This document shows positions 32,230 through 64,000 of a DNA stretch of 64,000 nt, one piece after another; position 1 is the first letter of the stretch, and each line of letters begins with the position of its first letter. The stretch spans positions 64,001-128,000 of the forward strand of contig CAVTZU010000018.1 of assembly GCA_963739305.1 (NCBI GenBank), written 5' to 3'. The position numbers and the translations under genes were made by a program. Source of the DNA: Candidatus Bathyarchaeota archaeon. GTDB taxonomy: Archaea; Thermoproteota; Bathyarchaeia; Bathyarchaeales; Bathycorpusculaceae. The notes beneath the pieces were generated by a model. The model made no database searches and was not told the DNA's origin. It worked only from the letters and a program-made list of their open reading frames with translations.

Positions 32230-32851
32230 GTGTTTTGCCCTCCGCGACATTCTTGTAGGCTCTCAGGATTTCTCTCGACCAACTCGCGGAACCGGGTGAA
32301 ATCAGGTTGATTTTGTCTGAGGGAACTTTGTACGCCCGAACTATTTCATCATTCATCCAACGCGATTTGACGAGAATCAGGTCTGCTTCATATGCGCCAA
32401 GCCATTCAATGCTCTTAATAGCCATGTTAAACGGGTTGTTTGCACCATGAGATCGATGATCTTCCAAGCTTTCAACGGAGTAAAGAAACGGGATTTTCAA
32501 ACCCTTCTTAAGGGTTACTGCGGCAGGAATGAAGTGCCAATCATGAACATCTATAAGGTCGACTTTCTGTTTTTTGTCGTAGTAGATGTTGGCCGTCACC
32601 CTTTCGACCTCCTGGTTCAAGGTTAGCACCCACGTAAGAACGCCAATGTGAGTGCGAACAGGGTTCGTTACTCTGAAAGTCTTGGTGCCTTCAGGCTCAT
32701 CGTACTCTCCCGTTAGATAGTCATGATAAGTAACTACATAGGGTTGTATCTGATTCTTGGTGAGTTGGATCGCGAGCGTTTTCACATAATTGGCAAGCTG
32801 TCCTACGATGCGAGGCGGGTACTCCCAAGAGAAGATGGCGGCAATCATCAA
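32216..32851 (-). CDS. GT4 N-terminal-domain-only protein
   Basis: WEYPPRIVGQ, VHDWH; lacks the C-terminal EPFG domain. Confidence 0.8.
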   Translation of the reverse strand: MMIAAIFSWEYPPRIVGQLANYVKTLAIQLTKNQIQPYVVTYHDYLTGEYDEPEGTKTFRVTNPVRTHIGVLTWVLTLNQEVERVTANIYYDKKQKVDLIDVHDWHFIPAAVTLKKGLKIPFLYSVESLEDHRSHGANNPFNMAIKSIEWLGAYEADLILVKSRWMNDEIVRAYKVPSDKINLISPGSASWSREILRAYKNVAEGKTHDSQ

Positions 32852-38570: not shown

Positions 38571-38977
38571 TTCTTGAGGGTTTTGTGATATTCAACTGCT
38601 TTATTGAAATCCATCGTGTTTGTTAGTTCTTGGTTGAGGTTTGTTGGTCTTATTATTAGGAGCCAGCCTTTGATGTAGGGGTCTTCGTTTAGTAGCTCGG
38701 GTTTTGATTGTACTTCTGTGTTTACTTCTTCAATTGTTCCGGTTATAGGTGCGACTAGATCTGATACTGCTTTGACTGATTCGACCGTGCCGTAGGGTTC
38801 GTTCTGTTTTATTTCGGATCCTGGGTTTGGTAGTTCTGCGTACACTATTTCTCTGAGTTGTTTCTGGGCGTAGTCGGTGATGCCGACGCGGACTTTGTCG
38901 CCTTCTATTTTGAGCCACTCAAATTCCTTCGTGTAATATAATCCGTCGGGTACTTCGTTTCCTTCTACTTTCACCAT
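38567..38977 (-). CDS. gcvH: Glycine cleavage H-like lipoyl carrier protein
   Basis: VGITDYAQ, VESVKAVSD (lipoyl Lys), NEDPY..GW. Confidence 0.93.
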   Translation of the reverse strand: MVKVEGNEVPDGLYYTKEFEWLKIEGDKVRVGITDYAQKQLREIVYAELPNPGSEIKQNEPYGTVESVKAVSDLVAPITGTIEEVNTEVQSKPELLNEDPYIKGWLLIIRPTNLNQELTNTMDFNKAVEYHKTLKK

Positions 38978-42741: not shown

Positions 42742-43592
42742 CGCGGTTTTCCTCGTTGCTTCTTACAAGAACTATGGGTTTATGTTTTGCTCCATCTAGC
42801 ATTTCCCAGCTTACCTCGGTGAAGCCGACTTTGAACTTTTCCGCCATCTCCCAGACTGTTCGCCCTGTGCCAAAACCTCTGGAACGATTGGCAATCTCAG
42901 CGATCCTCAAGGATTGCTCAGCGTTAAGACTGCATCCTGCGACGGCTAGGGGAGTGGCTCTTTTTCTAAGCCTGAGAACTCGTCCGATGACGTATGTAAC
43001 GAAGCCTCCGCCTGATTGAATTCCTCTGGTAGTTGTTGGGCGGGGTGTGAAGTGGAAGTTTCTGAGCGAGTAGGTCTTGTCGGTGTCGACGATCATCACT
43101 GAGACTCTTTTTCCTAAGCGCGAAAGGATTTCTTTTCTGATCGTTTCAGCGATTTCTCCGGGATTTTTCAAGGGTAGACTGACGTATGAGTAGGGCAGGT
43201 TGCTTCCATCGATGGCGCCTTCGGATCCGAACATGAGCGTTTGGAGCAGCCCAGCTTGTTGCAGGGCGACTTGTTTGTGGCGGCTTCCTTCTATCGGATG
43301 GGTATTCTCGTATCTGTTTGAGTAGTCTGGCTTTGAGGTGGCAGGCTGGGCCTAGCACGTAGCCCCAGACTGTCCGCATCCAGATCGTGGCGACGAGTTT
43401 TGCTGTGAGTGTCGGCGCGGTTTGGTTTTCGTCTACTATGTTGTTTGTCGCGGTTGAGATGGCTTTTTCTGACAGGACGATTATGTCGTTGTTGGCTACT
43501 CTTCCATTTATGGCCTGGATGATTTGTTTGATGTAGTCTTGTCCTGGTCTCCAGTACTTTGTTTTGATTGGGAGAACTTTGTATTTGGTCAT
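42704..43592 (-). CDS. Coenzyme F420-0:glutamate ligase (CofE)-like protein, 1-nt frameshift near 43296
   Basis: TKYWRPG, VLSEKAISTA, GAIDGSNLP, MIVDTDKTY; removing one base gives YPSIEGSRHKQVAL. Confidence 0.75.
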
Positions 43593-46279: not shown

Positions 46280-47122
46280 CTAGTAGTCTGCTAAGCGCGC
46301 GATTGCACGAAAAGCAACTTGACGCACCCGCACGCTGTTATCGTGGTAGATGATGTCTCGACGTTGGTCCTTTAGGCTTGCACTGAACAAGGGGGGTCCC
46401 CGGTTCCAGTCTCTATTATTGTATTTCTTTTGGTACAAACTAATCGCTGTACGCAATTCATTTGCAGTCAGGCTTCCCTTTATAAGGTTTACACGATACG
46501 TCTTTTCGTAGCCTTTTCTAATAGCATTCTTCGTTTCTTCCATGGTAATGCTTTCCAGAATTTCAGACAGGTTCACCAAGATAGTGTGGGGGTTTTGGAT
46601 CTTAAGAGCGCGTCCTAAAGTGCTAAAGTCAACGTTTACCATCAAGGTGCCGTGATGAAGGATAGCATCATACAGTCTGTGTTGAGCGCTCCCAGAGATT
46701 TTCTTTCTCTCTACTACTATGTTTCCGTTATTGTTGCGAGCTTGAACGCTCAGCATCCCAAGTCCTTCGACGACTCCCCCGCAAAAGAAGCTGTAAGACC
46801 TTTCTACATTCTCGATACCAACGGCCAGAGAGGGCTTCCTGACAATTATCGAATAATTCACATTACCATAGTCATGATAAACAGCCCCACCTCCGGAGAC
46901 TCTTCTGAAGATTCTGATCCCCAGCTTTTCGCAGTCAACAATGCTAGTAACAGACTTGGGATCTTGGAAATGTCCAATGACGACGGCTGGCGGATTCTGC
47001 CACAGACGCAGAGTGTTGGGACCATTATTCTCCAGAACGGATCTTAAAATCGCTTCATCAATTGCCAGATTCATCGCAGGATCTTCGGAACTGTAGTCGA
47101 TCATTCGCCAGTTATCAGTCAT
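46280..47122 (-). CDS. lplA: Lipoate--protein ligase A catalytic domain
   Basis: NLAIDEA, RRVSGGGAVYHD, KKISGSAQ, HHGTL; ATG at 47122. Confidence 0.9.
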   Translation of the reverse strand: MTDNWRMIDYSSEDPAMNLAIDEAILRSVLENNGPNTLRLWQNPPAVVIGHFQDPKSVTSIVDCEKLGIRIFRRVSGGGAVYHDYGNVNYSIIVRKPSLAVGIENVERSYSFFCGGVVEGLGMLSVQARNNNGNIVVERKKISGSAQHRLYDAILHHGTLMVNVDFSTLGRALKIQNPHTILVNLSEILESITMEETKNAIRKGYEKTYRVNLIKGSLTANELRTAISLYQKKYNNRDWNRGPPLFSASLKDQRRDIIYHDNSVRVRQVAFRAIARLADY

Positions 47123-47157
47123 ATCTTGGGCACCTGTAATGAGTTTGGTGGAAGATC

Positions 47158-48240
47158 CTATTTTCCGGGCAATGCGGCCACAACTGCGTTTCTCAGGCAT
47201 TCCCTAGTGGGCAGGGTCTTATCAAATTTCAATTCTCCATTGATGATTATTGCAGGAATTCTGCTGCATTTTTCAGCATCTATAAGGGCTGAGGACAACT
47301 CTGGATAGACTCCATGCTGATTTATCCCCTTTCCTCTCATCCAGACTCTCACTGTGATGTCATCTTGCAAGCCCGACGTGACATCGTTGACAAGATTGAT
47401 GAGCTTACGGCACATTGAAGTCGGAGGATAAGCAACAAAAACTTCAAGCGACGCTTTTCCCATCCCGACGAAGAAGGGTTCTATCCCGTGCACGTTCCAT
47501 TTCTCAAGGTTATATTTGGCTCTGTACAGCAAATTAGTCGATTTCTGTTCGTCTTCTGTTAATTTCTTTTTCAATTCGAAGACTATTCCCAACTTCTTCT
47601 CAAAGCCGTCTATAAGAGCTGTCTTTGCTTCTTCCATCGAAACGTCTTTTCTTAGTTGGCGTTTCAGCGATGTTATCATCAGCTTCTGTTCCGTTGGCTT
47701 TTCAGTTTTGATCATTTTGTTGTAAGCGTTCACGTCAGTATTAACGAGCAGAGTTCCTTGAAATAGAAGGAAATCGTGAAACCATTTTGGCAAAATCCCA
47801 GTCATTCTTCGTTCGCCAATATGAATTCCATCGGCATTCGCCTCAAGTTTGTCACTGAATTTTCGGAGCCCTTCAACGATTGCTGCGTTCAAAATAAAAT
47901 ACTCTGACAGGACAGGCGGGTAATCCGTAGTTCGCGTGTTGAAAAGTGCGGCATTCGCTGTAACAGCAAAATTCAAACTCCCCATATCCATGTAGAAAGG
48001 GTCGGCTGTGACTGATATTGCTCTGATGACTTCAACACCGTGTTTCCTGCATTCCTTTTGGTTGACGTCATCCTTGTATGAACTGCCCGATCCAATAATC
48101 ACAGAGGCTGGGCCTCGCCATAGCCGCAGTGTGTTCGGAGTCAAATTCTCTCTTCTGCTTCTAAAAATGGCCTCATTAATTGCCAGATCCATTCTCGGGT
48201 CGGCTGAACCGAAGTCAAGTAATCTCCATGTCTCAGCCAA
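47158..48240 (-). CDS. Degenerate LplA-like domain fused to a C-terminal thioredoxin-like domain
   Basis: WRLLD...PNTLRLW LplA scaffold with altered catalytic motifs; tail LEVFVAYPPTSMC...IPAIIINGE. Confidence 0.75.
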   Translation of the reverse strand: MAETWRLLDFGSADPRMDLAINEAIFRSRRENLTPNTLRLWRGPASVIIGSGSSYKDDVNQKECRKHGVEVIRAISVTADPFYMDMGSLNFAVTANAALFNTRTTDYPPVLSEYFILNAAIVEGLRKFSDKLEANADGIHIGERRMTGILPKWFHDFLLFQGTLLVNTDVNAYNKMIKTEKPTEQKLMITSLKRQLRKDVSMEEAKTALIDGFEKKLGIVFELKKKLTEDEQKSTNLLYRAKYNLEKWNVHGIEPFFVGMGKASLEVFVAYPPTSMCRKLINLVNDVTSGLQDDITVRVWMRGKGINQHGVYPELSSALIDAEKCSRIPAIIINGELKFDKTLPTRECLRNAVVAALPGK

Positions 48241-48964
48241 GATTGTTCACCCCAAAGTAGGGACACTTGTTTCCTAAACATTCTTTGTTGAGGTTTCTGA
48301 AATAGCAAGGGCGTGGATCTATCGAGTTGAGGGGTCTTATGTTAAATTCTCGTTCGAGGATCTCTGTTGCCTTCTGTACCGCTGAAAAAGTGCTTGCTTT
48401 GCAGCAACGCGGACCGCCAATCTTTGCGATCATGTGAAGGGATTCAGATACAGCTTCCATTGAAAGCGTCCGTTCTTTGTCTGATAGCATGTTGGCTTTG
48501 GTTGCAATGCTCAGGGCTATGCCTACTCCCGCGGCAGCCCCACAGACACCCCAAAGTCCACACGATGCAAGAAGTACTTTTCTTCCTCTTCTTATCGCTT
48601 CGTCAAATGCTGAATCGTTGATCCCAAATGTGCCCAAGTTTCTCCAAGCAGCTAGTAAGGCGCAGCTTACGACGTAGTGGTGCTCAGGGCCATGCATTTG
48701 GACTGCAGGATGCTTCATCAAGAGGAGAACAACTTTCATGGGATCCGTTTCTTTCGTGGCTCCGCAGACTTTGTGGACAAGCGTTTCAGGAGTGGCTAGC
48801 CTGCAGCTTTCACAAATGTAGTGTCCTTCTTCACAGACGTAGTCTGCTTTCTCAGTTTTTCCGCAAAAGGAACATTTCGTTGCTTCCGAGGTCGATCGCA
48901 AGGGCTTTCCACAGACCACACAATGGAATTCTTCCAGTTCTTCTGGAGACTGTTTCTTCTTCAG
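48233..48964 (-). CDS. DUF5714-like Cys-rich metal-binding protein
   Basis: CVVCG, CSFCG, CEEGHYICESC, MHGPEHH, CGLWGVCG, GGPRCCK, CLGNKCPY; probable CTG start after GGAGGG. Confidence 0.8.
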   Translation of the reverse strand: MKKKQSPEELEEFHCVVCGKPLRSTSEATKCSFCGKTEKADYVCEEGHYICESCRLATPETLVHKVCGATKETDPMKVVLLLMKHPAVQMHGPEHHYVVSCALLAAWRNLGTFGINDSAFDEAIRRGRKVLLASCGLWGVCGAAAGVGIALSIATKANMLSDKERTLSMEAVSESLHMIAKIGGPRCCKASTFSAVQKATEILEREFNIRPLNSIDPRPCYFRNLNKECLGNKCPYFGVNNLG

Positions 48965-48988: not shown

Positions 48989-50916
48989 TCATCCCTTAAT
49001 CTTGGCTAGAGGCTTTGGCTTACTCAGCAACAGTAAAGCGGAATTGATTACCACCGATATGCATCCGGCTTCTGCAAGAACAACTGCTAGGACTGGATTC
49101 AGGATGCCAAAAGCGGCTAAACTCAATGCAACTATGTTCCAAATGAAGGCGTAAACTATGTTCCCCTTCATTCTGTTAAATGCCTTCCGACTCAGGCTAA
49201 TCGCATACTCAACCTTTGTCAAGTCGTCTCCAAGGAGAGCTACGTCAGCAGTCTCCACGCCACATCGCTGCCAGCCGCACCCATAGCAAACCCAACATCC
49301 GAATTAGCCAACGCAGGAGCATCATTCACGCCGTCACCAACCATCGCGACTATACTGCCTTTTCTCAGCTCCCCAATGGCCTCAACTTTCTGTTCTGGTA
49401 AAAGCTCAGCGCGGTACTCATCGACCCCGATCTGTTCAGCGATGGATTTGGCAGTCCTTGCGTTGTCGCCAGTTATCATGGCAGTTTTGACTCCTAAACG
49501 CTTAAGCCTTAGTATAGCTTCCAAGGAATTCTCCCTGACCGTGTCAGCCACCACGATGACGCCAATTACATTTTTGTCAAGTGCCACGGGAATAGCTGTT
49601 TTTCCCTCGCTTTCAACTTTACTCATCAATTGACTCGCTTCTTCTGAAATCATCCGTTCCCATCATCTTGGTTCCAATCAGGATGTGCTTGTTTCCGTAA
49701 TGAGCATCCACGCCGTGCCCTGGAACAGTTTTGAAGTCTGTAGGATCAGGAATTTTCATGCCTCATCTCAGTTGCCTTAGCGATGATGGCTTTGGACAGG
49801 GGATGCTCTGAGAATTTCTCGGCAATTGCTGCATACTTGATCGTGTCCGCTTCAGAGTAATTTCCGAAGGTTTTTATCTCAACAACCTTAGGTTCGCCTA
49901 GGGTTAACGTGCCAGTTTTGTCGAAGGCCACCAGCTTAATGTCCTTTAGCTTCTCGATGTGTGTGCCGCCCTTGATTATTATGCCGTTCATGCTGGCATT
50001 ACCGATAGTGCCCGCAACAGCGACTGGAACAGCTATGGAAAGCGCGCAAGGGCATGCGACTAAGAGAACAGTCACGGTTCTGGCCAATGCCACGTCAAAA
50101 CCAAGTGCGAAGTAACTCACCGCAAAGACAGAAGATGCCAAAACTGCCATGATTGGCAAGAAGTAAGTGGTAAACCGATCTGCAATGTTCTGTATCGGTG
50201 CTTTTTTCTCTTGAGCTTCTTCAACAAGTTGAATGAGATGAGCAAGCGTAGTGTCCTCAGCGATTTTTTCAACTTTGATTTCCAGTGCTCCACGTTCATT
50301 GAGTGTTCCAGCAAATGTGCGGTCTCCCACCGTCTTTTCTACAGGAATCGACTCGCCAGTTATAGTTGCCTGATTAACCGTGCTGTGTCCGGAAATCACT
50401 GTTCCGTCAACGGGTATTTTGTCGCCTGGTTTGACTAAGAACGATTTCGTCCATCTTGACCTCGTCTACGGGTATTTCAACTTCGGTGCCGTCTCGACGT
50501 ATTCGAGCAGTGGTGGGGCTCATTTTAATGAGCTTCTCAAGTGCGCCTCTTGTTCTATGGATGATGTAGTCTTCAAGCGTCATACCTGCAAGTATTATGA
50601 ACGCCACTATCGCTGATGCCGTGAGGTAACCAACTGCTTCTGCCGTGCCAGTGGCCGATGCCGAAGGCAGTACGAGACCAGCTATTACTGAAATGAAGAT
50701 GGCGATAGTTGCAAACAATTGAGCGGTAACGTTCCCATGCCGCAGGGATCGAATGCCATGCAAATAGATGCGGTAGCCCAAGGCAACGGCGATCAAAGTT
50801 AAAGCAATGCTAATTTCATGCGCATAAGCTACTTGAGTCCCAGATATTAGGGCCCCTGCTAGAATGAATAGCCCAAGTGAAGCGACAAGAAGTACGCCTT
50901 TAAAATGCTCTCTCAT
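48989..50916 (-). CDS. P1B heavy-metal-translocating ATPase, broken by four 1-nt frameshifts
   Basis: TGES, ACPC, DKTGT, SEHPL, TGDN, GDGVNDAP across consecutive ORFs; shifts near 50437, 49763, 49660, 49258. Confidence 0.88.
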
Positions 50917-51627: not shown

Positions 51628-52002
51628 ATGTCTGACATCAAGGTCACCGAAAAAGGGCAAAAGATCCTGGCCGTTTGGCATGGAGTTCCACGCAAAGAAA
51701 TCGAGTGGCATCCCACGGTTGAAAAAGAGCTATGCATAGGATGCGGGTTATGTGTGCTTGGTTGCGGAGCCAATGTTTATGCGTTCGATTTCAGTGACAA
51801 CAAACCAGTCGTCGTCGCACCTCTCAACTGTAAAGTAGGCTGCGTAACCTGCGCAAACACTTGCCCAGTGCATGCGATAAGCTTCCCGCCGCTTTCATAC
51901 TTGCATAAAATAATCAAGGAAAAAAAGGTTCTCACCACCAGCAGAGACGAACTCAAGAAGAGTGCAGACAGAATAGGTTACACCTACAAGGACGTGGAAT
52001 GA
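51628..52002 (+). CDS. 2x[4Fe-4S] ferredoxin family protein
   Basis: CIGCGLCVLGC, CKVGCVTCANTCP. Confidence 0.88.
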   Translation: MSDIKVTEKGQKILAVWHGVPRKEIEWHPTVEKELCIGCGLCVLGCGANVYAFDFSDNKPVVVAPLNCKVGCVTCANTCPVHAISFPPLSYLHKIIKEKKVLTTSRDELKKSADRIGYTYKDVE

Positions 52003-52006
52003 TACG

Positions 52007-52762
52007 TTGAAAGGAGAATCAGACGTGCCTCAAACATCAAACTTCCAATATTCTCTTTCGCTCAAGGAAACACTTGGACTGAAGTGGTCACCAGTCGCGG
52101 TCAAACTGGTCAAACCTGATGAACCCATCAACGAAATCCCTCCAAAGTCTCCCAAGAGGCTACGGTACTGTCAACTTCTGATGGAAGGAAAAAGGGGAAA
52201 AAGCGCGACTCTAACAAACGAAAACATTGCTTGTCCTGCTGCCGCGGCAGCTTTAGGGCTTATGCCTCTTCCTGAGAAGATCAGCAGTGGGAAGATGCTT
52301 AAAACACTCGGCCTGTTTGAGTCTGAAGAGGCTGCAGCAAAGACGATGGCGCAAATGTCAAGAATAAAACTGGGAGATGTCAAAGCAATCGCTGCTGCTC
52401 CACTTGAAAATGCGACATTCAGACCAGACGTCGTCATAATTGAGGACAACCCCGAAAGAATAATGTGGGTAAATCTGGCCGCAATTCACGAAACCGGAGG
52501 ACGTCTTTCTTTCAGCTCTGCCGTTTTTCAAGCTTGCTGCGTAGATGTGACGGTCATTCCATATCTTACCAAGAATGTCAACGTTAGCCTAGGCTGTTAT
52601 GGCTGCAGAGATGCCACCGACATAGCAGACGATGAATGTCTTGTTGGAATACCAATGGAAAAACTGGACGAAATAATCACATCGCTTAAAGCCCTAGCCC
52701 AGAAAGCCATGCCCGAAGCCCGAAACAAAGGAGTCTACAACCAGTTCGTCAAGGTTCAATAG
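52007..52762 (+). CDS. DUF169 family protein
   Basis: SPVAVKL, RYCQ, CPAAAAALG, PDVVII, ACC, SLGCYGCR. Confidence 0.88.
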   Translation: MKGESDVPQTSNFQYSLSLKETLGLKWSPVAVKLVKPDEPINEIPPKSPKRLRYCQLLMEGKRGKSATLTNENIACPAAAAALGLMPLPEKISSGKMLKTLGLFESEEAAAKTMAQMSRIKLGDVKAIAAAPLENATFRPDVVIIEDNPERIMWVNLAAIHETGGRLSFSSAVFQACCVDVTVIPYLTKNVNVSLGCYGCRDATDIADDECLVGIPMEKLDEIITSLKALAQKAMPEARNKGVYNQFVKVQ

Positions 52763-55177: not shown

Positions 55178-57592
55178 TTAATCCTCAAGCGTTTTGAATT
55201 TGCGTGTTAGGTACACCTTGATTGGATCGTTGATTAGAAAAGTCGTTAACAGCGCGTAGCCCAAGATTGCAAGCAGAGGCATGTAGCCGAGTGGGGCAAG
55301 CTCTAAGACGCCGAAGCTGGAGATAGCGATCACGAACAGGATTTCTGCTAAGACTGTAATGCCAAGCAACCTGCTGGGTCTTGACTTCCAGAAGTGGTTC
55401 CGCTCACGAACGATCATTAGCGTGGATATGCCTGCAAGGTTCAGGTAGGCAAACCCGAAAGTGTAGATTTTCTCAACATTCCCAATTAGCCCAAAGTATG
55501 ATAGAGCAGGCACTGCAAAGAGTGCACTTTCAACCGTCATTAGTGCGCCTAGTGAGCCGCTGACTCCGAATAGCCGTCGCATGTCGAAGGTGTCAGGCTT
55601 GAGAGAAGAGCGCACATTGTCTGTTGATATGGACATGGAGACAAAGTCGCCGAGGAAAAGTATCAGCACCGTGCCCGTTATTGATAGCATTAATGAGTGG
55701 GTGAGGAAAAGCATCAAAACGATGAATCCAGCGATGTGCAGTTTGCGGGCGACCATCATTAAAGCCCAGCTATAGATTCTCTGATAAATCGTCCGCGAAG
55801 TCTTAATCATGGGTATTATTCCTCCAAGACCCTCAGCGGTGAGTACAGCGCTGGCGGAGTCTTTGGCGATGTCTGTTGCGTTCTTTACGGCGATTCCCAC
55901 TTCCGCCTGCCCCAAAGCTGGAGCGTCGTTCACGCCATCTCCAGTCATCCCAACCACATGTCCTATGCGTTGCAGAGTCTTGACTATGCTGAATTTGTCT
56001 TCGGGGTAAATCTGGGCTATGCCGTGGCTGTCTTCAATCGTTGAGTCAATAGGTGTTGCCTTGGTTTCATCTTCCTGAATCTTCGACATCGTGGTGACCC
56101 TGCTGCCTAATCCTACCTGCTGCGCGATGTTTTTAGCAATGGGAAGCGAGTCGCCCGTAAGCATCTTCACTTCTACACCTAACGCATGAATCTGCTCTAT
56201 TATCTCGCGTGAATCTTCTCTAATCCTGTCAGCGATGCCTGCAAGACCAACAAACTCCAGTCTGCTCCGTTCAGCTCCCTTGGCGACAGCGATCACTCTT
56301 AACCCTTTTGCGGAGAGTTGCTCAGCAATCGTGACCATAGCCTTTGCTTCCTCTTCCCGAGCGTTGCAGACAGCGCATATTACGTCAAAAGAGCCCTTTC
56401 CGACAAAGAATTTTTCGCCAGCTTTGTCGATTGTGGCTTCTGTCATTCTAGTTTTAGGGTCGAAGGGTATGAATTCCTTTTGTATGCAAGTATTCAAGGG
56501 TATACGTGCCTCTGCAGCAGCTGTTAAGAAAGCTATGTCGATTGGGTCCTGATTGGCTTCATTCGATGAAAGTGCCCCATAAAGCAACACGTCGCCTTCG
56601 CCAAATCCGTTAAGAGGAACTTCTTCTTCAACGAAGAGTTTGTTCATCGTAATTGTGCCCGTTTTGTCTGCACACAGAACATCCATCGTGGCTGCGTCCT
56701 CGCTCGCGCTCAGTCTTGTGACTAGGACGCTTTGTTTTGCAAGCATTGCTGAGCCGAGTGCCATGTTTATGGTAAACATCGTGGGCATGGCGATCGGCAC
56801 GGAGGCTACGAGCAACACGCCGGCAAGTGGCAACAATACGGCAAGGTCGAAACCAGTCAATACAGCGTAGACAAAGACTATCAAGAGAGATGCAAGCACG
56901 ATGATGGCGAGTCGGCGTGCTACGTTGACTGTGACTTCTTCCATGTGAAGTTTTGGTTTAGCCAGTTCGAGCAGGGAAATGGTTTTTCCAAAGTAGGTTT
57001 TCGTTCCTGTGGCGGCAACTGTACCTGTGGCTTCGCCGCGTTTTACAGCCGATCCCGAATAGGCTATCTCTCCAACACTCTTATCCACGATTCCAGACTC
57101 GCCAGTGAGCACGGATTGGTCCAAACCGAGAGAACCATCAACAATCTTTACATCCGCAGGCAAAAGATCGCCAATTCTGACTCTAACGAGATCGCCGGGA
57201 ACAAGCTCCCTAGCCGCGATGACGGCCCATTTTCCTTCTCTCTTGACTCTGCTCTGAATCCTTAGTCGCTGTTTTAGAGTTGCCATTGCAGCTTTTGCCC
57301 TTTTCTCCCGCCACAGCGACATTCCAGCGTTGAAAAGAAGAAGACCTATGATTACGGCTGCTTGCACATACTTACCTAACACCAATGTGACGATTGCAGT
57401 AGCTTCAAGCATCCAAGGTACGATGCCCCAGAAACGTTTTCCAAGTCTATTCCAAAAACTGACTTTCTTCTCAGAAACCTCATTGTACCCATACTTCGCA
57501 AGTCTCTTCTGGACTTCTTGTGCATCCAACCCATTTTCCAGATTTGTTCCTTTCAATTCTTGTTCTTTGTCGGAATCGTCCAAAATCTTCAC
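55178..57592 (-). CDS. P3A-type plasma-membrane proton-efflux ATPase
   Basis: DQSVLTGES, PIAMP, CADKTGT, DPID, PFDP, KG, LTGD, TGDGVNDAPAL. Confidence 0.88.
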   Translation of the reverse strand: MKILDDSDKEQELKGTNLENGLDAQEVQKRLAKYGYNEVSEKKVSFWNRLGKRFWGIVPWMLEATAIVTLVLGKYVQAAVIIGLLLFNAGMSLWREKRAKAAMATLKQRLRIQSRVKREGKWAVIAARELVPGDLVRVRIGDLLPADVKIVDGSLGLDQSVLTGESGIVDKSVGEIAYSGSAVKRGEATGTVAATGTKTYFGKTISLLELAKPKLHMEEVTVNVARRLAIIVLASLLIVFVYAVLTGFDLAVLLPLAGVLLVASVPIAMPTMFTINMALGSAMLAKQSVLVTRLSASEDAATMDVLCADKTGTITMNKLFVEEEVPLNGFGEGDVLLYGALSSNEANQDPIDIAFLTAAAEARIPLNTCIQKEFIPFDPKTRMTEATIDKAGEKFFVGKGSFDVICAVCNAREEEAKAMVTIAEQLSAKGLRVIAVAKGAERSRLEFVGLAGIADRIREDSREIIEQIHALGVEVKMLTGDSLPIAKNIAQQVGLGSRVTTMSKIQEDETKATPIDSTIEDSHGIAQIYPEDKFSIVKTLQRIGHVVGMTGDGVNDAPALGQAEVGIAVKNATDIAKDSASAVLTAEGLGGIIPMIKTSRTIYQRIYSWALMMVARKLHIAGFIVLMLFLTHSLMLSITGTVLILFLGDFVSMSISTDNVRSSLKPDTFDMRRLFGVSGSLGALMTVESALFAVPALSYFGLIGNVEKIYTFGFAYLNLAGISTLMIVRERNHFWKSRPSRLLGITVLAEILFVIAISSFGVLELAPLGYMPLLAILGYALLTTFLINDPIKVYLTRKFKTLED

Positions 57593-57637: not shown

Positions 57638-57961
57638 TCAAACCAATTGTTCAACGATACGTTTTGAAAGAGTGCCTATCAGCTCCGGGGTCACCGCATC
57701 GATTATCTCTAATACTCTGCGATCTGTAATTGAGTAGAGTCTTCTGTTCGCGTTTTTTCTGTCCCTCACTAGCCCAGAGTCTTTGAGAATTTTCAAATGG
57801 CGGGACACCATGGGCTGGATAAGTCCAACATGTGGGATTATCTCGTACACGCATTTCTCGCCAGTGCGTAGGAATTCCAGGATTTCAAGCCTCGTCGAGT
57901 CCGAAAGGGCATCGAAAACTTTAGTCTTGAACTTGACCAGTTTATCTGTCTGGGGGTGCAT
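57638..57961 (-). CDS. arsR: ArsR/SmtB family repressor, paralogue (CVY motif)
   Basis: FDALSDSTRLEIL, EKCVYEI, QPMVSRHLKIL; close paralogue of 51225-51554. Confidence 0.92.
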   Translation of the reverse strand: MHPQTDKLVKFKTKVFDALSDSTRLEILEFLRTGEKCVYEIIPHVGLIQPMVSRHLKILKDSGLVRDRKNANRRLYSITDRRVLEIIDAVTPELIGTLSKRIVEQLV

Positions 57962-57981
57962 GTTTAAGGAAATATTGATGA

Positions 57982-58001: not shown

Positions 58002-58060
58002 GGATTACTCTATCTGCCAACGTGCGAAAGAACAAGAGAGCATGAAAAGAGGTGCAAATC

Positions 58061-58429
58061 GTGGAGAAAAAAAAGGCAAGTTTCATATTCTGTGTGTGCA
58101 CGGGAAAGTGTAGTGGATTCAAGGATCTAGACATGTGGGACTTCGTTAACATCGTAAGAGCCGAGTATCCGGTCGAATATGCGTTCATACATCCCATGCT
58201 CTGTGATGAAGACGGGGAACGCTTCTTTGCAGACTTCCTCCGAAAAGATAGGGTATATTTCATCGCTGGCTGTGCTGCAGTGATGCAGAAAAAGCTCTTT
58301 CGAGACGCGTTTGAGAAAGCTGGACTTGACATAAACAAGGATCTAGTTCCTCTAGACGTCAGGAACATGACTACAGAAAAAGCATTGGAAACCGTGAAGA
58401 AAGCCTTGGAGGCTACAACCCAAACATGA
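58061..58429 (+). CDS. Stand-alone HdrA N-terminal-like Fe-S domain protein
   Basis: FCVCTGKC...HPMLC...G...IAGC...LFR...AGL...LDVR mirrors the HdrA N-terminal CxC/LC/AAC/NIR pattern. Confidence 0.65.
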   Translation: MEKKKASFIFCVCTGKCSGFKDLDMWDFVNIVRAEYPVEYAFIHPMLCDEDGERFFADFLRKDRVYFIAGCAAVMQKKLFRDAFEKAGLDINKDLVPLDVRNMTTEKALETVKKALEATTQT

Positions 58430-58717
58430 CAGAAGAAACATACATGGGAGTTCCACGAAGCAAAATCCCTTGGTGCCCAAAGATCGATACAGCAAAATGT
58501 AACCAGTGCGAGGGCGACCCGCAATGCCTCAGATTCTGCCCCCATGGAGTGTTCGAATACAACAAGGAAAAGAAGGAATTCATCGTCAAAAACCCAGAAC
58601 AACTGCGTCGTGTTCTGCAGGGCATGCTCCAAAGTCTGCGCCGCGGACGCACTCAGTTTTCCAGAGAAGAAGGAAATTCTGAAGCTGATAAAAAATGTCC
58701 GAGAAGAAAAAAAGTAA
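58426..58717 (+). CDS. 2x[4Fe-4S] ferredoxin, 1-nt frameshift near 58597
   Basis: CNQC...CLRFCP; removing one G gives NPNNCVVFCRACSKVC...REEKK stop. Confidence 0.82.
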
Positions 58718-59099
58718 GTACATAATCATCCCGTGTAGCGGGATCGGAAAGGCACTCGGAACGATAACGCGTAGAGCCACGTACATCGTGACCGAAGAAC
58801 TGTTGCCGAATGATACCGATTCTATTTGTCTTCCTTTGCTCACAATCGAAGACGAGGAGACTGTGCGGAAAATAAGAGAGAACCCTTGCATAACCCTAGA
58901 TGGCTGCGTTGCTCAATGTGCCAAGAAAAATGTTGAACACCATCACGGAGAACTCAAAGGAAGCATCAGGATCCTGGACGTGATCAAGGAGAATCCTAAG
59001 CTTAAGCCTGGAACGGTACTGGACATCGGACCTGACGGTGAGAAACTGGCAAGAAAAACAGCCGAAAAAGCCGTCAAAATCATAGGAGATAAAAATTGA
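58695..59099 (+). CDS. DGC-domain putative zinc-binding protein
   Basis: PCSG, ICLP, LDGCVAQCA. Confidence 0.88.
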   Translation: MSEKKKSKYIIIPCSGIGKALGTITRRATYIVTEELLPNDTDSICLPLLTIEDEETVRKIRENPCITLDGCVAQCAKKNVEHHHGELKGSIRILDVIKENPKLKPGTVLDIGPDGEKLARKTAEKAVKIIGDKN

Positions 59100-59503
59100 A
59101 GATCAAACGCAAAATCGGCTTAATCTCCTGCAGCGGAGAAGGGCTTCCTGAAGGAATGATATCCCGCGTAGCAACTCGAAGAATACTAGAAGAACGCGAC
59201 GACGTCGTAACAATCTGCCTTCCTCTCTTTCTCGCAGGCGGACAAGAAGAGAGAGACTTCGCCAAGGACAATCCTTGCATAACCGTTGACGGCTGCGACA
59301 AGATGTGTGCCGCCAAAGGCGTCCAAATGTACGGCAAAGTGCATCCCAAATCGTCAATAGTCATATCAGACATTGCAGAAAAACATAAACATCTTAAACC
59401 CAAATCAAAAAGCAGAATAGAACCTCAAGACGAGAAGCTTGTTAAAGAAACCATGAAACGCATTACTGAGGAGATAGACAGAGTAGAGGAGGAAGAAGAG
59501 TAG
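59096..59503 (+). CDS. DGC-domain putative zinc-binding protein
   Basis: SCSG, ICLP, VDGCDKMCA. Confidence 0.88.
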   Translation: MKIKRKIGLISCSGEGLPEGMISRVATRRILEERDDVVTICLPLFLAGGQEERDFAKDNPCITVDGCDKMCAAKGVQMYGKVHPKSSIVISDIAEKHKHLKPKSKSRIEPQDEKLVKETMKRITEEIDRVEEEEE

Positions 59504-59504
59504 C

Positions 59505-60311
59505 ATGTCAATAGAAAAGAAAGTTGCCGTTGCTGTTTGCACAGGCATGGACCGACCGCTTGCCACAGTGTCCAGATACGCAGGATACCATGTTCTAGAA
59601 AAACTGAGGCCAGACAAGACTGTCTTGCTTTGCACTCCAGCCCTAATAAGTGGCGTTAAAGAGGACGTGACCTTTGCCAAAGAGAACCCTATATTGGTCA
59701 TCGATGGCTGTGAAGAGAGATGCTGCGAAAAGATAGTCAATGAAGCGAAAGGACAGATCAAAGCCATCATAAACGTTGAAGACGTCCTGAAAGAACACGA
59801 GGACTTGCAGCCTGAGTCGAGAGCTAAGCTTGGGCCGAAAGGAATGAAACTTGCGGAAATAGTCGGAGAACTGGCCGCGAAGAAGGTCGATGAAATACTC
59901 GCAGGGGTGAAAGAGATGGAAGATAAGAAAGTCGCTATCGTAGCCTGCACTGGCATGGGAAAAGCACTTGGGACAGTAGCTCGACAGGTCGCCTTCAAGG
60001 TCGTGGATGAACTGCGACCTGGAAAAGCAGTGCTGATATGTATTCCATCTCTCACCGCAGGAGTCGGAGAATACAAGAACCTGTTGCAGAAGTATCCTTC
60101 CATCGTACTGGATGGTTGCGTGGAAAGGTGTGCCACTAAAATCATTTTCAAGAACAAAGGCATTATGAGGGCTAAAGTTTTCATGCCTCAAATGGTCGCA
60201 AAGTATGGCTTAAAGCCCCTGTCCCGAACTGACCTCGGTGAAGAAGGGGAGAAACTTGTTACGAAAATAGCTGAAGAAGTAGCCGCGTTAGTTGACCAGC
60301 TTTCAAGGTGA
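59505..60311 (+). CDS. Tandem double DGC-domain protein
   Basis: CTG...LCTP...IDGCEERCC and CTG...ICIP...LDGCVERCA. Confidence 0.88.
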   Translation: MSIEKKVAVAVCTGMDRPLATVSRYAGYHVLEKLRPDKTVLLCTPALISGVKEDVTFAKENPILVIDGCEERCCEKIVNEAKGQIKAIINVEDVLKEHEDLQPESRAKLGPKGMKLAEIVGELAAKKVDEILAGVKEMEDKKVAIVACTGMGKALGTVARQVAFKVVDELRPGKAVLICIPSLTAGVGEYKNLLQKYPSIVLDGCVERCATKIIFKNKGIMRAKVFMPQMVAKYGLKPLSRTDLGEEGEKLVTKIAEEVAALVDQLSR

Positions 60312-60315
60312 AAAG

Positions 60316-60789
60316 ATGGAACAATTAGAACTGAAAGTTGACAAATATACGTTCATCGTTCCTAAAGGTCTCTACTACAACGAGAATGATTTTTGGGCCA
60401 GAATTGAGGGCAAGATAGCAACCGTCGGCATAACGTCCTATCTGCAAAATCATTTGAGTGACATAGTCTTCGTCTCTCTCCCACAAATCGGCACCAAAAT
60501 TGAACAATTCGGTGAAGCCGGATCCTTTGAATCAGTGAAGGCTGCTCTGGACGTTATATCACCTGTTTCAGGCTCAATAGTTGAAGTCAACAATGAATTA
60601 GTGAATTCGCCTGAACTTGCAAATTCAGATCCATATGGCAGAGGCTGGTTCGTGAAGATCGAGCTGACAGATTTTGAGTCAGACAAAGAGAATCTCATAG
60701 ACGCAGAAGGCTACTTTGAGGTCATGAAGAAAAAAGTGGAAAAAGAACACGAGCAACTGAAACAAAAGCGAGCTGTAAACACGACTTAG
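60316..60789 (+). CDS. GcvH-like lipoyl carrier protein (second copy)
   Basis: VGITSY, FESVKAALDVISPVSG (lipoyl Lys), NSDPYGRGW. Confidence 0.9.
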   Translation: MEQLELKVDKYTFIVPKGLYYNENDFWARIEGKIATVGITSYLQNHLSDIVFVSLPQIGTKIEQFGEAGSFESVKAALDVISPVSGSIVEVNNELVNSPELANSDPYGRGWFVKIELTDFESDKENLIDAEGYFEVMKKKVEKEHEQLKQKRAVNTT

Positions 60790-60807
60790 AAAGAGGGCAG
60801 GCGAGTC

Positions 60808-61038
60808 GTGGAAACAAGTTTCAAGGAAATACGCGAGAAATATCGTTCTGTCAAGACCGGAAAGTCCAGCATTGACGTTTTCTCTCTGAAATCAGAAATT
60901 GAGACCTATGTGAAGAGTCAGCAAGGTTCGAAAACAAGAAACAGCAATTCTTTGGCGGAGGCAGAGGACATGTTGATTGATGTGACACAGATGATTGAAG
61001 AGGGCCACTGCAACCCTCTAAGAAATAAGAAGCTGTAA
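60808..61038 (+). CDS. Small hypothetical protein
   Basis: 76-aa ORF 18 nt after the GcvH-like gene, C-terminal GHCNP. Confidence 0.55.
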   Translation: METSFKEIREKYRSVKTGKSSIDVFSLKSEIETYVKSQQGSKTRNSNSLAEAEDMLIDVTQMIEEGHCNPLRNKKL

Positions 61039-61122
61039 GTCATACTTCTGTCTGAGTTGGAACTATGAAGAAAATTCCGTTTGTCGCCCGCGCTAGTACT
61101 GAAATGAGGCTGTGATTAAGAC

Positions 61123-61557
61123 TTGGAAAAGACTAAAGTCATTTTTCTATGTGTAGGAAATTCGGCACGGAGCCAAATGGCTGAAGCATTCCTAAGAAAA
61201 TATGCAGGTAATCATTTCGAGGTCTACAGTGCAGGCTTCGAACCCCGACCCATCCACCCTTACACCATCAAGGTGATGAGAGAACTGGGATATGACTTGA
61301 GTGGCCAGCATCCAAAGGAGTTGAAACAGTATCTTGGAAAGATACATTTCGGGATAGTCATAACAGTATGTGAAAAAGCAGAAAAGACGTGCCCTATGAT
61401 ACCAGGGGCATCCACTAGATTGTATTGGCCATTCGAAGACCCAGCAGCATTTCAAGGAACTGAAGAGGAGAAATTAGCCAAATTCCGAGAAGTTCGAGAT
61501 AAAATCAACGAAAAGATAAAAACATGGCTGAAAGACAGAGGCATCGCGGAAAACTGA
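61123..61557 (+). CDS. arsC: Arsenate reductase ArsC (LMW-PTP fold, thioredoxin-coupled type)
   Basis: FLCVGNSARSQMAE, TVC...TCP, WPFEDP. Confidence 0.88.
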   Translation: MEKTKVIFLCVGNSARSQMAEAFLRKYAGNHFEVYSAGFEPRPIHPYTIKVMRELGYDLSGQHPKELKQYLGKIHFGIVITVCEKAEKTCPMIPGASTRLYWPFEDPAAFQGTEEEKLAKFREVRDKINEKIKTWLKDRGIAEN

Positions 61558-61672: not shown

Positions 61673-62335
61673 TTGAGTGATCTCCTCTTGAAGTGGTTTG
61701 AGAAACGCAGAGAATCAAAAGCTTTAGCTCCGATGCAACGCCATCTTGCGATAACAATGAGCTCAGTTGAAGACCTTGAAAGTGCAGTAAAAGCAGCAGT
61801 TGATCTCAACGAAAAAGAAGCCAAGGCTGCAATAGGAAGGGTCACAAGTTCTGAGAAGGAAGCCGATGGACTGAGGAGAGCCGTTATGACTGAACTGGCA
61901 TGCGGGGAGTTGCCGCCCTCAGACAGAGAATACCTGATGAACTTAATGAAGTCCGTCGACATGGTCGCAGACTGTAGCCAAGAATCAAGCCGGCTCTTGA
62001 GTGCCATTCCAATGGAAGATGTGTCAGAAAACCTCAAAAAAGCGCTGGTCAAGATGGTGGAAGGCGCTAAAGAATGTGCCATGGCGCTGCGAAAATGCAT
62101 TAATAGCATACCGGAAAAACGCGAAGAAGCCTTAAAAGCAGCAGACGAAGTCGAACGATTAGAAGAGAAAGTCGACGACCTATTTGAAAACTCCAGACGT
62201 TTGATCGCCAGAGAGGAGAAGATTCGGGTAGGAACCGCCATATTACTGAATGATCTCTTTGAAGCTATTGAAATGGTTGCCAATCGATGTGAAGACGCCT
62301 GTGACCAAGTGAGAGTGATTGTCTGCTGCCGATAA
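61673..62335 (+). CDS. DUF47 / PhoU-like phosphate transport regulator
   Basis: EKEADGLRR, DMVAD, LEEKVDD, ANRCEDACD repeated helical motifs. Confidence 0.88.
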   Translation: MSDLLLKWFEKRRESKALAPMQRHLAITMSSVEDLESAVKAAVDLNEKEAKAAIGRVTSSEKEADGLRRAVMTELACGELPPSDREYLMNLMKSVDMVADCSQESSRLLSAIPMEDVSENLKKALVKMVEGAKECAMALRKCINSIPEKREEALKAADEVERLEEKVDDLFENSRRLIAREEKIRVGTAILLNDLFEAIEMVANRCEDACDQVRVIVCCR

Positions 62336-62416: not shown

Positions 62417-62911
62417 ATGGAAAAGATAAAAGTTCTTTTTTTGTGTGAACATAATTCCGCCCGATCGCAGATGGCTGAAGGTTTGCTTAGGCATCTGTAC
62501 GGTGAAAAGTATGAAGTGTTCAGCGCGGGCGCAAATCCGACGCAAGTCAATCCTTTTGCCATTAAGGTTATGGCCGAGATAGGGATAGATATTTCCAAGC
62601 AGACTTCCAAGAGCATTGAAGAGTTCCGAAACAAGGAAATCGACTTAGTCGTATCAGTGTGCAGAAGCAGTGCCAAGCTAATGTGTTCATTGTGTTCTTC
62701 ACCGATAGTCATGGGTAGACCAGAGATAATCAACACGACAATACCCGGAGCAAAACACTATCTTCACCATGGATTCAACGATCCTTCTGAGGTGGACGGG
62801 AGTGACGAGGAAAAAACCAAGGCCTTCCGACGCACAAGAGATGACATCAAACAGTGGATAATCGATAAATTTGCCGATCCAAAGACAGTAAACTCGGACA
62901 ATGATTTATAG
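62417..62911 (+). CDS. arsC: Second ArsC / LMW-PTP family protein with Cys-containing insertion
   Basis: FLCEHNSARSQMAE, VSVC, MCSLC insertion, FNDP. Confidence 0.8.
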   Translation: MEKIKVLFLCEHNSARSQMAEGLLRHLYGEKYEVFSAGANPTQVNPFAIKVMAEIGIDISKQTSKSIEEFRNKEIDLVVSVCRSSAKLMCSLCSSPIVMGRPEIINTTIPGAKHYLHHGFNDPSEVDGSDEEKTKAFRRTRDDIKQWIIDKFADPKTVNSDNDL

Positions 62912-63265: not shown

Positions 63266-64000
63266 ATGAGTGAGGAATCAACGAGTGGCCAAAACTCTCG
63301 AAAATGGCTGAACAGAAACGTTGCCGCAATGGGTTTTACCAGTCTGTTCAGCGACATGAACCATGAAATGGCTACGGCGGTTCTCCCATTCTTCCTCGCA
63401 ACACTCGGGGCAGGACCTGAGATTTTGGGTCTGATCGAAGGGTTTTCCGACGTTTCTTCAAGCCTCGTAAAGTCTTTCGCGGGATATCTGAGCGACAAAC
63501 TTGGACGAAGGAAGCCTCTGCTAAACATTGGTTACGCTTTAACAGGCATATTCACACCCCTAATAGCATTAGCTACCTCGTGGTATCAAGTGCTCGTCTT
63601 AAGGGTTGGTGCTTGGACTGGAAGAGGAGCCCGTGGACCACCCAGAGATGCTTTACTGGCGGATTCCGTTTCTCCAGAAGTCAGAGGAAAAGCGTTCGGT
63701 TTCCACAGGACCATGGACACATTAGGCGCTGTTATCGGACCCGCCTTAGCCCTGTTCTTTCTAACTTTCCTGAATTATCGCCAGATAATTGCAATATCGG
63801 CAATCCCCGGTCTAGCAGCGTTGCTAGTAGTCCTTCTATTTGTACGTGAAGTCCGAAAAAAACCATCGCCAGACACTCCGATTGTCTCGGCTCATGGCGG
63901 CCTCGTCGTGAAGGACAAAGGATTTGTCACGTCGATCAAGACGCTTCCGAGGTCGTTTCAGCTCTTCCTTGTTGGCGTAGGCGTTTTTGGGCTGGGAAAT
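63266..64000 (+). CDS. MFS transporter (5' part, runs off window)
   Basis: Own translation: SLFSDMNHEM...GYLSDKLGRRKPL (MFS motif A), RGPPRDALL; absent from ORF track because it has no stop in the window. Confidence 0.88.
   Translation, partial: MSEESTSGQNSRKWLNRNVAAMGFTSLFSDMNHEMATAVLPFFLATLGAGPEILGLIEGFSDVSSSLVKSFAGYLSDKLGRRKPLLNIGYALTGIFTPLIALATSWYQVLVLRVGAWTGRGARGPPRDALLADSVSPEVRGKAFGFHRTMDTLGAVIGPALALFFLTFLNYRQIIAISAIPGLAALLVVLLFVREVRKKPSPDTPIVSAHGGLVVKDKGFVTSIKTLPRSFQLFLVGVGVFGLGN

Follow-up and report, generated by a model that had tools for sequence, protein, structure and literature searches.

What does an archaeon do with a glycine-cleavage-type lipoyl carrier that is encoded in one operon with iron-sulfur (Fe-S) proteins and several cysteine-rich DGC proteins? 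We address this question for a tightly packed set of plus-strand genes at positions 58061-61038 of the window, the stretch of 64,000 nucleotides (nt) from Candidatus Bathyarchaeota archaeon that was analyzed here. The window corresponds to contig C18:64001-128000 of a 2.3-Mb genome in 36 contigs (97.1% complete, 7.8% contamination). In order of transcription the set contains the open reading frame ORF1, a ferredoxin-like gene, DGC_A, DGC_B, an ORF with two further DGC domains (C and D), a gcvH gene and ORF7. Tentatively, and as a proposal that falls somewhat short of probable, we read the operon as an arsenic-island, lipoate-dependent thiol/Fe-S redox module that serves Cys4 centers of the DGC proteins. 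The gene content, its conservation, the fusions, clades and folds, and the genomic context are matters of observation and are described below. The genes and domains are as follows.

58061..58429, + strand: ORF1, 122 amino acids (aa), with an alternative GTG start at 58052; the stop overlaps the ferredoxin ATG at 58426
58426..58717, + strand: ferredoxin-like gene with a frame broken near 58597; the first frame runs from 58426 to about 58597, the remainder lies in the next frame
58695..59099, + strand: DGC_A (type A), 134 aa, PF08859 with 59.7 bits; the stop overlaps the TTG start of DGC_B
59096..59503, + strand: DGC_B (type B), 135 aa, TTG start, PF08859 with 61.1 bits
59505..60311, + strand: C/D ORF, 268 aa, two DGC stretches, PF08859 with 104.5 bits; it starts 1 nt past the DGC_B stop
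59505..59915, + strand: DGC domain C, a gene of its own in relatives, here continuing into D
59916..60311, + strand: DGC domain D, the type found beside GcvH and, in bacteria and Thorarchaeota, fused with it
60316..60789 (or from 60292), + strand: GcvH2, GcvH-type lipoyl carrier; the ATG at 60316 agrees with the start in relatives
60808..61038, + strand: ORF7, 76 aa, after an 18-nt gap behind GcvH

A previous interpretation of this DNA, made from the letters alone and here termed the sequence-only reading, had described six overlapping or near-touching genes with a seventh 18 nt further on, and our gene calls and junctions agree with this. It had also counted four DGC domains that keep C(S/T)G, CxP and DGCxxxC; Pfam and the translations concur, and each of the four combines a match to the DGC hidden Markov model (HMM; PF08859, cut-off 27 bits) with four conserved cysteines including that of the DGC motif. 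These four domains are the only DGC matches in the 2.3-Mb genome. Among 91 DGC sequences, C12, G66, C67 and C71 never vary, and the conservation of C41 is 90% or higher. The AlphaFold2 (AF2) model of DGC_B (pLDDT 91.8) has a four-strand parallel alpha/beta fold, and comparison of residue positions with secondary structure puts three of the four conserved cysteines just after beta1, beta2 and beta3 and the fourth where the next helix begins, a placement that in the model would cluster all four at one edge of the sheet. A search of the PDB with the DGC_B sequence found nothing, Foldseek of the model against the PDB gave no match at E <= 0.001, and a wide VIA-align search returned generic alpha/beta neighbors only, the best with Z 8.8 (3pu6_A), which lies in a range common for unrelated models. 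From the protein atlas only DGC clusters named "zinc-binding" were returned.

The DGC proteins are not simply repeats of one another. In a tree of 55 DGC domains the subunit types are common to archaea and bacteria. All 16 B-type rows fall into one clade (support 99) that contains Bathyarchaeia, Thorarchaeota, Bacillota and Caldisericia. The domains adjoining or fused to GcvH group with the extra C/D copies (support 89), with two long-branch Thorarchaeota rows outside, and the A-type rows make up the remainder of the tree, again with orthologs in archaea and bacteria. Each type (A, B and D) has its own conserved signature. Judged by sequence, such cross-domain types fit unlike subunits of one assembly. 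Concerning the hetero-oligomeric DGC complex that had been suggested earlier, the notion of unlike subunits is in line with the three cross-domain orthogroups, and their joining into one complex is what we infer from them. Complex predictions of DGC_A, DGC_B and DGC_D with GcvH2 scored 0.00 in two runs without controls, a result that speaks neither for nor against binding.

The module is widely distributed. A search with an ORF1 profile in one genome per species (185,579 species) recovered 42 loci, mostly from Bathyarchaeia, but also from three Thorarchaeota, one Nezhaarchaeota, a Wolframiiraptor and some unclassified archaea. Four loci are bacterial, from Dehalobacterium, Formimonas warabiya, a Desulfitobacteriaceae metagenome-assembled genome (MAG) and a Caldisericia MAG. 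By tblastn, a ferredoxin gene (Fd) follows ORF1 in 38 of the 42 loci; GcvH was found in 27 of 42, and in 24 of the 27 loci that have at least 2.6 kb downstream of ORF1. The gene order is ORF1-Fd-A-B-(C)-D-GcvH in Bathyarchaeia, and ORF1-Fd-[D-like::GcvH]-A-B, with the bracketed pair fused, in bacteria and Thorarchaeota. Exceptions are L084, L094, L096 and the short loci L092 and L093, in which ORF1 and Fd stand with two divergent DGC genes or with none. A second sample covered one bacterial phylum and used only the DGC half of a fusion protein as query; 15 of 401 genomes matched, 10 loci were fetched, and nine of these contain the full set ORF1-Fd-DGC::GcvH-DGC-DGC. With the module present in archaea and bacteria, the synteny described in the sequence-only reading is not unique to one genome.

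In Bathyarchaeia, extended clusters add genes for a DUF169 protein, ORF7, a membrane-anchored protein, DsbD_TM and an 89-aa protein that has CVC and, at its C-terminus, CC. The membrane-anchored protein matched no family and appears thioredoxin (Trx)-like from its sequence. Neither ORF1 nor ORF7 matched a family in the Pfam and NCBIfam scans, and the NCBIfam scan had no model for the DGC proteins either. A single cysteine of ORF7 is conserved (EEGHCNP); tblastn gave 11 matches, located in 10 of the 42 loci, and ORF7 is a variable accessory gene. DUF169 (COG2043) is also encoded elsewhere in the window, where 51628-52762 (+ strand) holds a ferredoxin gene followed by a DUF169 gene. Relatives have DUF169 within the module, with GcvH and ORF7 on either side, and the family recurs beside lone DGC and Acr3-like genes in this phylum.

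Is the lipoyl carrier a component in its own right or a displaced glycine cleavage protein? GcvH2 reaches 127 bits with PF01597 (cut-off 22.2 bits) and 132.5 bits with TIGR00527 (cut-off 115.85), and its nearest PDB matches are all H proteins of the glycine cleavage system (GCS), at E 4.5e-38 and weaker. These matches are what one would cite for an ordinary glycine-cleavage H protein that happens to stand beside unrelated genes, and fold family and lipoyl-lysine motif are indeed common to both. We nevertheless regard this explanation as very improbable, given that 26 operon-linked GcvH proteins form a clade of their own (98/98), apart from eight same-genome paralogs including GcvH1 of the window. 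The genomic gcvP lies on another contig (C8), GcvH2 adjoins neither gcvP nor gcvT, the gene order is kept across domains, and the operon-linked proteins differ further by their adjacency or fusion to DGC and, in the alignment, by a distinct N-terminal signature of the NENDCW type. The distinction from canonical GCS H proteins, on which the sequence-only reading depended, holds. So does its statement that the lipoyl lysine is intact: it lies in ESVKA, and K75 and E72 are kept by all 19 operon-linked GcvH proteins in the alignment.

Covalent linkage of the two partners is found in five loci from bacteria and Thorarchaeota, in which DGC::GcvH fusions of 277-323 aa carry both Pfam domains. Searching 5.8 billion proteins with one such fusion (E <= 1e-5) gave 1276 protein clusters, and 120 of 120 among the matches listed have PF01597 together with PF08859. 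Source organisms, as named there, include Dehalobacterium formicoaceticum, Dehalobacter, Syntrophomonas, Clostridium tepidiprofundi, C. frigoris and Caloramator quimbayensis; the proteins are labeled there as "putative zinc-binding protein" or "glycine cleavage system H protein". In a class-level search around Formimonas, the fusion was present in four of 73 genomes. Enzymes of lipoate metabolism are also linked to the module. A dihydrolipoyl dehydrogenase gene (lpd) lies directly upstream of ORF1 in three Bacillota loci (TIGR01350, 507-531 bits against 408.8), and the Formimonas operon encodes a lipoate-protein ligase (LplA) past its DGC genes (TIGR00545, 356 bits against 280). The genome of the window has a dihydrolipoyl dehydrogenase on contig C17 (NF004947, 726 bits against 592). 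Thus, the invariant lysine, the fusions and the in-operon Lpd and LplA of some Bacillota back the lipoate dependence that had been proposed.

The first gene of the operon points to Fe-S chemistry. The HdrA N-terminal domain binds a [4Fe-4S] cluster, and a relation of ORF1 to it had been suspected in the sequence-only reading. A profile search of the PDB aligned ORF1 with HdrA residues 8-93 (E 0.007), including the CxC...C...C pattern. With the ORF1 AF2 model (pLDDT 94), HdrA chains take the first seven places among the Foldseek matches (E 3.4e-6 to 2.2e-4, TMq 0.62-0.74), and MvhD-type chains come next at E of about 0.02-0.03. The suspected relation is borne out by both searches: ORF1 is a stand-alone homolog of the HdrA N-terminal domain, one domain of HdrA rather than HdrA itself, and the Pfam scan found neither the FAD-binding thioredoxin-reductase-like core nor the ferredoxin domains of HdrA in its 122 aa. 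Its conserved cysteines, C11, C13, C48 and C71, are presumed to bind a [4Fe-4S] cluster. The family is small, with 132 representatives at E <= 0.001 among 1.84 billion. A kinship of ORF1 with DGC was considered and rejected, as the profile-profile probability was 4% and not significant, although two cysteine columns align.

In its logic, the sHdr-LbpA system of sulfur oxidizers is by analogy the closest known system. As far as the accessible part of the description goes (PMC6067878), the two systems share a GcvH-like lipoyl carrier that does not belong to glycine cleavage, as well as an Fe-S element related to HdrA and a ferredoxin-type protein, and in some genomes each also has dedicated LplA and Lpd. 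The core of sHdr consists of HdrB/HdrC with CCG domains and the HdrA flavin protein, whereas here only the 122-aa HdrA N-terminal domain is present, and DGC, which sHdr lacks, stands in for the rest. None of the domains of hdrC1B1A-hyp-hdrC2B2 turned up among the scanned ORFs of the window and of the relatives' loci. The neighbors differ as well, with sulfur-oxidation genes there and arsenic resistance (ars) genes here.

These ars neighbors hint at the role of the operon and had been missed in the sequence-only reading. Of the 42 loci, 40 have one or more ars genes, and the remaining two end at ORF1. Genes of the ArsR family stand in 39 of 42 loci; the Bathyarchaeia copies usually read away from ORF1, with Acr3 next in line. 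Acr3 is encoded in 21, an ArsC-like protein in 11, ArsP in five and an ArsM-like protein in four of the 42 loci. The one Acr3 copy that was checked scores 340 bits with TIGR00832 (cut-off 282.8), and ArsM in two Bacillota loci reaches 309 and 362 bits with NF008823 (263). The bacterial phylum sample gave a similar picture, with ArsR-like genes in 10 of 10 loci, Acr3-like in five (called at 35-37% identity), ArsM-like in three, and ArsC-like, ArsP and Lpd in two each and LplA in one. The earlier interpretation, electrons or sulfur/metalloid moved between Fe-S proteins and a lipoyl arm, is therefore partly supported and can be sharpened towards arsenic, since the ars-gene surroundings favor its metalloid option. 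Around the operon, the window contains the following features.

57638..57961, - strand: ArsR/SmtB-family repressor, divergent; Pfam HTH_5 60.1 bits, NCBIfam HTH_metalloreg 86.6 bits
57982..57997, no strand: 16-bp perfect palindrome CAATATTTAAATATTG in the divergent spacer, overlapping the TATA-like element TTTAAATA
57970-57977, no strand: further palindrome half-site in the ArsR-ORF1 spacer
55178..57592, - strand: P-type ATPase of the plasma-membrane type (IIIA), TIGR01647 681 bits against 615.5, behind ArsR in the usual place of Acr3
61123-61557, + strand: ArsC-like low-molecular-weight protein tyrosine phosphatase (LMW-PTP; ArsC1), Pfam LMWPc
61673-62335, + strand: DUF47/PhoU_div protein, Pfam PhoU_div
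62417-62911, + strand: second ArsC-like LMW-PTP (ArsC2), Pfam LMWPc
63266..64000, + strand: transporter of the major facilitator superfamily (MFS), Pfam MFS_1; it leaves the window and has 418 aa in the contig, with the complete ORF at L120:67-1323

The regulator and the spacer are informative. The CxC pair of R773 ArsR binds As(III), and CxC is present in 22 of the 23 operon-linked ArsR proteins examined (18 CVC, 2 CAC, 2 CQC), the window copy being the exception. The palindrome CAATATTTAAATATTG occurs exactly in eight of 12 divergent spacers and is one or two bases off in the other four; it was found in none of the three spacers with ArsR on the same strand. From its sequence and position we regard it as a candidate ArsR operator on a TATA-like element. 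The P-type ATPase arrangement recurs in two other loci (L057 and L090). No specific arsenical-transporter model matched the MFS transporter.

A DGC protein has been met in an ars operon before. The accessible part of a preprint describes a P. mercurii operon with the order ArsR5-ArsP-ArsE-DGC, in which the DGC function is unassigned (bioRxiv 10.1101/2022.10.17.512643). Outside the module, 15 of the best 30 DGC loci in the phylum sample have ORF1, Fd, DUF169, ArsR, Acr3-like or ArsP genes within 1.5 kb. The partners of DGC vary: an ArsE-type thioredoxin in P. mercurii, Fd with or without ORF1 and lacking GcvH in several archaea and bacteria, or GcvH with or without Lpd in others. This variation suggests that DGC is the constant working part and that the reductant supply is exchangeable.

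On this basis a working scheme can be outlined, in which the cofactor content, the direction of electron flow, the substrate and the induction by arsenite are what we infer. An ArsR-type repressor would control the operon and, in most relatives, also the divergent Acr3 arsenite pump; it probably acts at the conserved palindrome of the shared spacer, with arsenite as the signal. The working part would consist of the unlike DGC subunits A, B and D, with an extra C/D pair in this lineage, each subunit providing a Cys4 center at the C-terminal edge of its flavodoxin-like sheet. Electrons could reach these centers on two routes. On the first, low-potential ferredoxin would deliver them by way of two proteins, the 2x[4Fe-4S]-type one and the HdrA-N-like one with its [4Fe-4S] cluster; on the second, NAD(P)H would supply them via dihydrolipoyl dehydrogenase and the lipoyl-lysine arm, which belongs to the dedicated H protein. 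This arm would be tethered to the D-type DGC, by adjacent genes in Bathyarchaeia and in a single polypeptide in bacteria and Thorarchaeota. The DGC centers would then perform dithiol chemistry on arsenicals or for arsenic enzymes; they might reduce pentavalent species, regenerate ArsC or ArsM, or keep As(III)-binding thiols reduced. The products would exit via Acr3, ArsP or an MFS pump.

A dedicated reductant supply is known from other ars islands, which carry genes for thioredoxin and thioredoxin reductase (arsTX). In the mycobacterial relay of Lpd, lipoyl protein and AhpD, the electrons for a CxxC protein can come from a lipoyl group bound to another protein. The common element is a detoxification cluster with its own dithiol reductant chain. 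Here, in contrast, the carrier is a lipoyl-GcvH, thioredoxin reductase is absent, and the Fe-S proteins and DGC have no counterpart there. An AhpD/CMD-like gene is present in three Bacillota loci: past the module and after a second ArsR gene, these encode a 107-aa protein with five conserved cysteines (L088:10624-10947, L083:13954-14277, L081:12855-13178). NCBIfam also holds models of ArsM/AhpD fusions. Together this hints at a relay from the lipoyl group to the AhpD-like protein and on to ArsM.

The same context can be read differently. As(III) binds vicinal dithiols such as dihydrolipoamide. The module might hence be an arsenic carrier or chaperone in the manner of ArsD, in which As(III) or methyl-As(III) forms a cyclic dithiol adduct with the reduced lipoyl arm and is handed to the DGC Cys4 and on to the efflux pump, with the Fe-S proteins and Lpd only keeping thiols reduced. 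Acr3 is the commonest partner after ArsR (21 of 42 loci), a tethered swinging arm as in the fusions suits a carried substrate, and the four clustered cysteines of each DGC domain resemble three-sulfur As(III) sites. A sponge or chaperone, however, has no obvious need of three unlike DGC proteins, a ferredoxin and an HdrA-like cluster protein, and variants without GcvH exist, so that we hold this explanation to be somewhat unlikely. ArsD, a small Cys-rich cytosolic ars protein, is at best a functional analog of DGC and of the 89-aa CVC/CC protein; no relationship in sequence or fold to DGC was found, and ArsD needs neither lipoate nor Fe-S partners.

A more far-reaching version makes the lipoyl arm a covalent arsenic carrier in a glycine-cleavage-like machine. 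As(III) or methyl-As(III) would ride on dihydrolipoyl-GcvH between three different DGC active sites, and low-potential electrons supplied by the ferredoxin and the HdrA-like cluster would drive a reductive transformation, for example reductive cleavage of the C-As bond (demethylation) or reduction or thiolation of organoarsenicals prior to export. We judge this to be unlikely, and we know of no anaerobic enzyme for such a transformation.

Lipoyl enzymes are classic targets of arsenite, which leads to yet another explanation. An arsenite-induced spare lipoyl protein with helpers might serve protection or repair, freeing or replacing lipoyl and Fe-S enzymes that are blocked by arsenic. It can draw on the dedicated LplA of some operons and on the second GcvH, two LplA-like genes and DUF5714 gene that the window holds 10-20 kb off. 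It leaves unexplained why the lipoyl protein is consistently paired with Fe-S proteins and three types of DGC and why DGC and GcvH are covalently fused, and it appears improbable to us.

Returning to the arsenic-linked redox module, several points weigh against it. Regulators of the ArsR family also sense other metals and persulfides. The best NCBIfam match of ArsC1 and ArsC2 is arsC_pI258_fam, with 134.3 and 109.7 bits under a cut-off of 174.3. DGC variants with ORF1 and Fd and without GcvH exist (L092-L094, L022-L024), and lipoate is therefore not a requirement of all DGC systems. The structure searches gave no informative neighbor for the DGC fold, its four cysteines may bind zinc, an Fe-S cluster or arsenic, and the need for three unlike DGC subunits in a mere reductant relay lacks an explanation. 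No RNA runs containing the stretch were found. The window itself has a frameshifted ferredoxin and an ArsR without CxC, and no Acr3 match was found in its 97%-complete genome; this copy may be decaying or differently wired. Finally, one relative (G109) has the sulfur-trafficking genes YeeE, DsrE and DsrH and a third GcvH-like gene downstream of the module.

The sulfur genes of G109 and the lack of CxC in the window's ArsR could indicate that the module is not specific to arsenic at all, but a sulfur/persulfide or other soft-metal system of the sHdr-LbpA type, with a regulator that senses persulfide or another metal and with ars neighbors that reflect clustering in stress islands. LbpA-type lipoyl proteins serve Hdr-like sulfur oxidation, as the accessible part of PMC6067878 describes, and ORF1 is HdrA-like. 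In 10 of the 42 loci, genes for DsbD_TM and membrane-anchored Trx-like proteins follow the module. Yet neither HdrB/HdrC (CCG) nor the HdrA flavin domain was found among the ORFs scanned in the loci examined, the arsenite-type CxC motif is present in 22 of 23 ArsR proteins, HMM matches verify Acr3, ArsM and ArsP, which are specific to arsenic, and the sulfur genes were observed in one lineage only. We therefore consider this explanation quite unlikely. In the G109 relative (L043, G109:C65, 1014-4879), whose gene order is the same, the genes past the module encode a YeeE-type sulfur transporter, DsrE, DsrH, a 78-aa ORF, a truncated GcvH-like protein (122 aa), a ferredoxin and an ArsC2 that is 83% identical to the window copy; this stretch is possibly a sulfur-trafficking add-on.

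The operon is thus not a glycine cleavage system, not an sHdr system and not a named ars component. Searched in full text, open-access papers in PMC and bioRxiv preprints (subscription journals and supplements lie outside this search) yielded no link of DGC/PF08859 with GcvH or lipoate, no lipoyl protein in ars operons and no description of the module; the P. mercurii operon with its DGC gene was the one relevant finding. To our knowledge, two of the component families have no characterized member, and protein-bound lipoate is known in few systems, namely the 2-oxoacid dehydrogenases, glycine cleavage, acetoin dehydrogenase and sHdr-LbpA sulfur oxidation. If the arsenic-linked redox module is real, it would be a further lipoate system, present in archaeal and bacterial arsenic islands, and hence a new role of this cofactor. 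There is some irony in a lipoyl system within an arsenic island, lipoate being a classic target of arsenite. It would also provide a first functional handle on the DGC family (PF08859) and may bear on anoxic arsenic cycling in peat, paddy soil and sediment. Among the questions touched are the source of reductant for ArsC and ArsM in organisms that lack glutathione and the enzymes that act on methylated arsenic in the absence of oxygen. The occurrence of the fused form in cultured Clostridia (Dehalobacterium formicoaceticum, Clostridium tepidiprofundi, Caloramator quimbayensis) makes the proposal testable at the bench.

How intact is the copy in the window? The sequence-only reading had correctly recognized a ferredoxin gene, and the frameshift within it had gone unseen. 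A DNA alignment with four close relatives reveals one extra base near 58597. The orthologs have a single intact ORF of 94-102 aa (96 aa in L057) with eight cysteines in two four-cysteine motifs. The eight cysteines of a 2x[4Fe-4S] ferredoxin thus lie in one frame in the orthologs and not in the window copy, which matches Fer4_6 with 21.2 bits, under the cut-off of 25. Likewise, the four DGC domains had been assigned to three genes, and here the domains stand, but the single C/D gene does not: the window is one base short at 59915/59916, C and D are separate genes in the four relatives, and the 268-aa two-domain protein arises because of this missing base. A search with the 268-aa protein found only nine proteins, because the C/D fusion is peculiar to this assembly. 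Contigs of four public metagenome runs, which represent related strains other than the window's own reads, often lack the extra ferredoxin base, and in two of the four runs the entire depth at the C/D junction has the additional base.

Further genes of the window are split as well, all on the minus strand: an F420-0:gamma-glutamyl ligase (42704-43592), a P-type ATPase (49240-50916) and a GT4 glycosyltransferase (31006-32851). This suggests indel errors or pseudogenes in this MAG. Because these genes are also split, an assembly error is a plausible origin of the two indels in the operon, next to real decay of this copy. The repressor deviates too, having CVY where its nearest relatives have CVC and KDSGL where they have KDCGL. 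Counting the frameshift of the ferredoxin gene and the frame fusion of C and D, the locus has three lesions, which could be due to decay, a non-inducible repressor or a poor consensus. At the other end of the operon, positions 60762-61064 including ORF7 are swapped for 33 other letters in contigs of three related metagenome runs, and ORF7 is therefore dispensable in some strains.

Two other regions of the window encode lipoate-related proteins. At 46280-48919 (- strand), a tandem pair of LplA-like genes precedes a DUF5714 gene. The second of the pair ends in a thioredoxin-like stretch that weakly matches a Trx-like family with the HUIPC motif, and the DUF5714 gene matches the MbdU metal-binding double-selenoprotein model with 161 bits, under the cut-off. 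At 37209-38977 (- strand), the gene for GcvH1 (136 aa, 38567-38977) overlaps the beginning of that for a 453-aa flavoprotein. The best match of the latter is CoA-disulfide reductase with 378 bits, under the cut-off; it is not a dihydrolipoyl dehydrogenase, and it is an unusual partner for an H protein.

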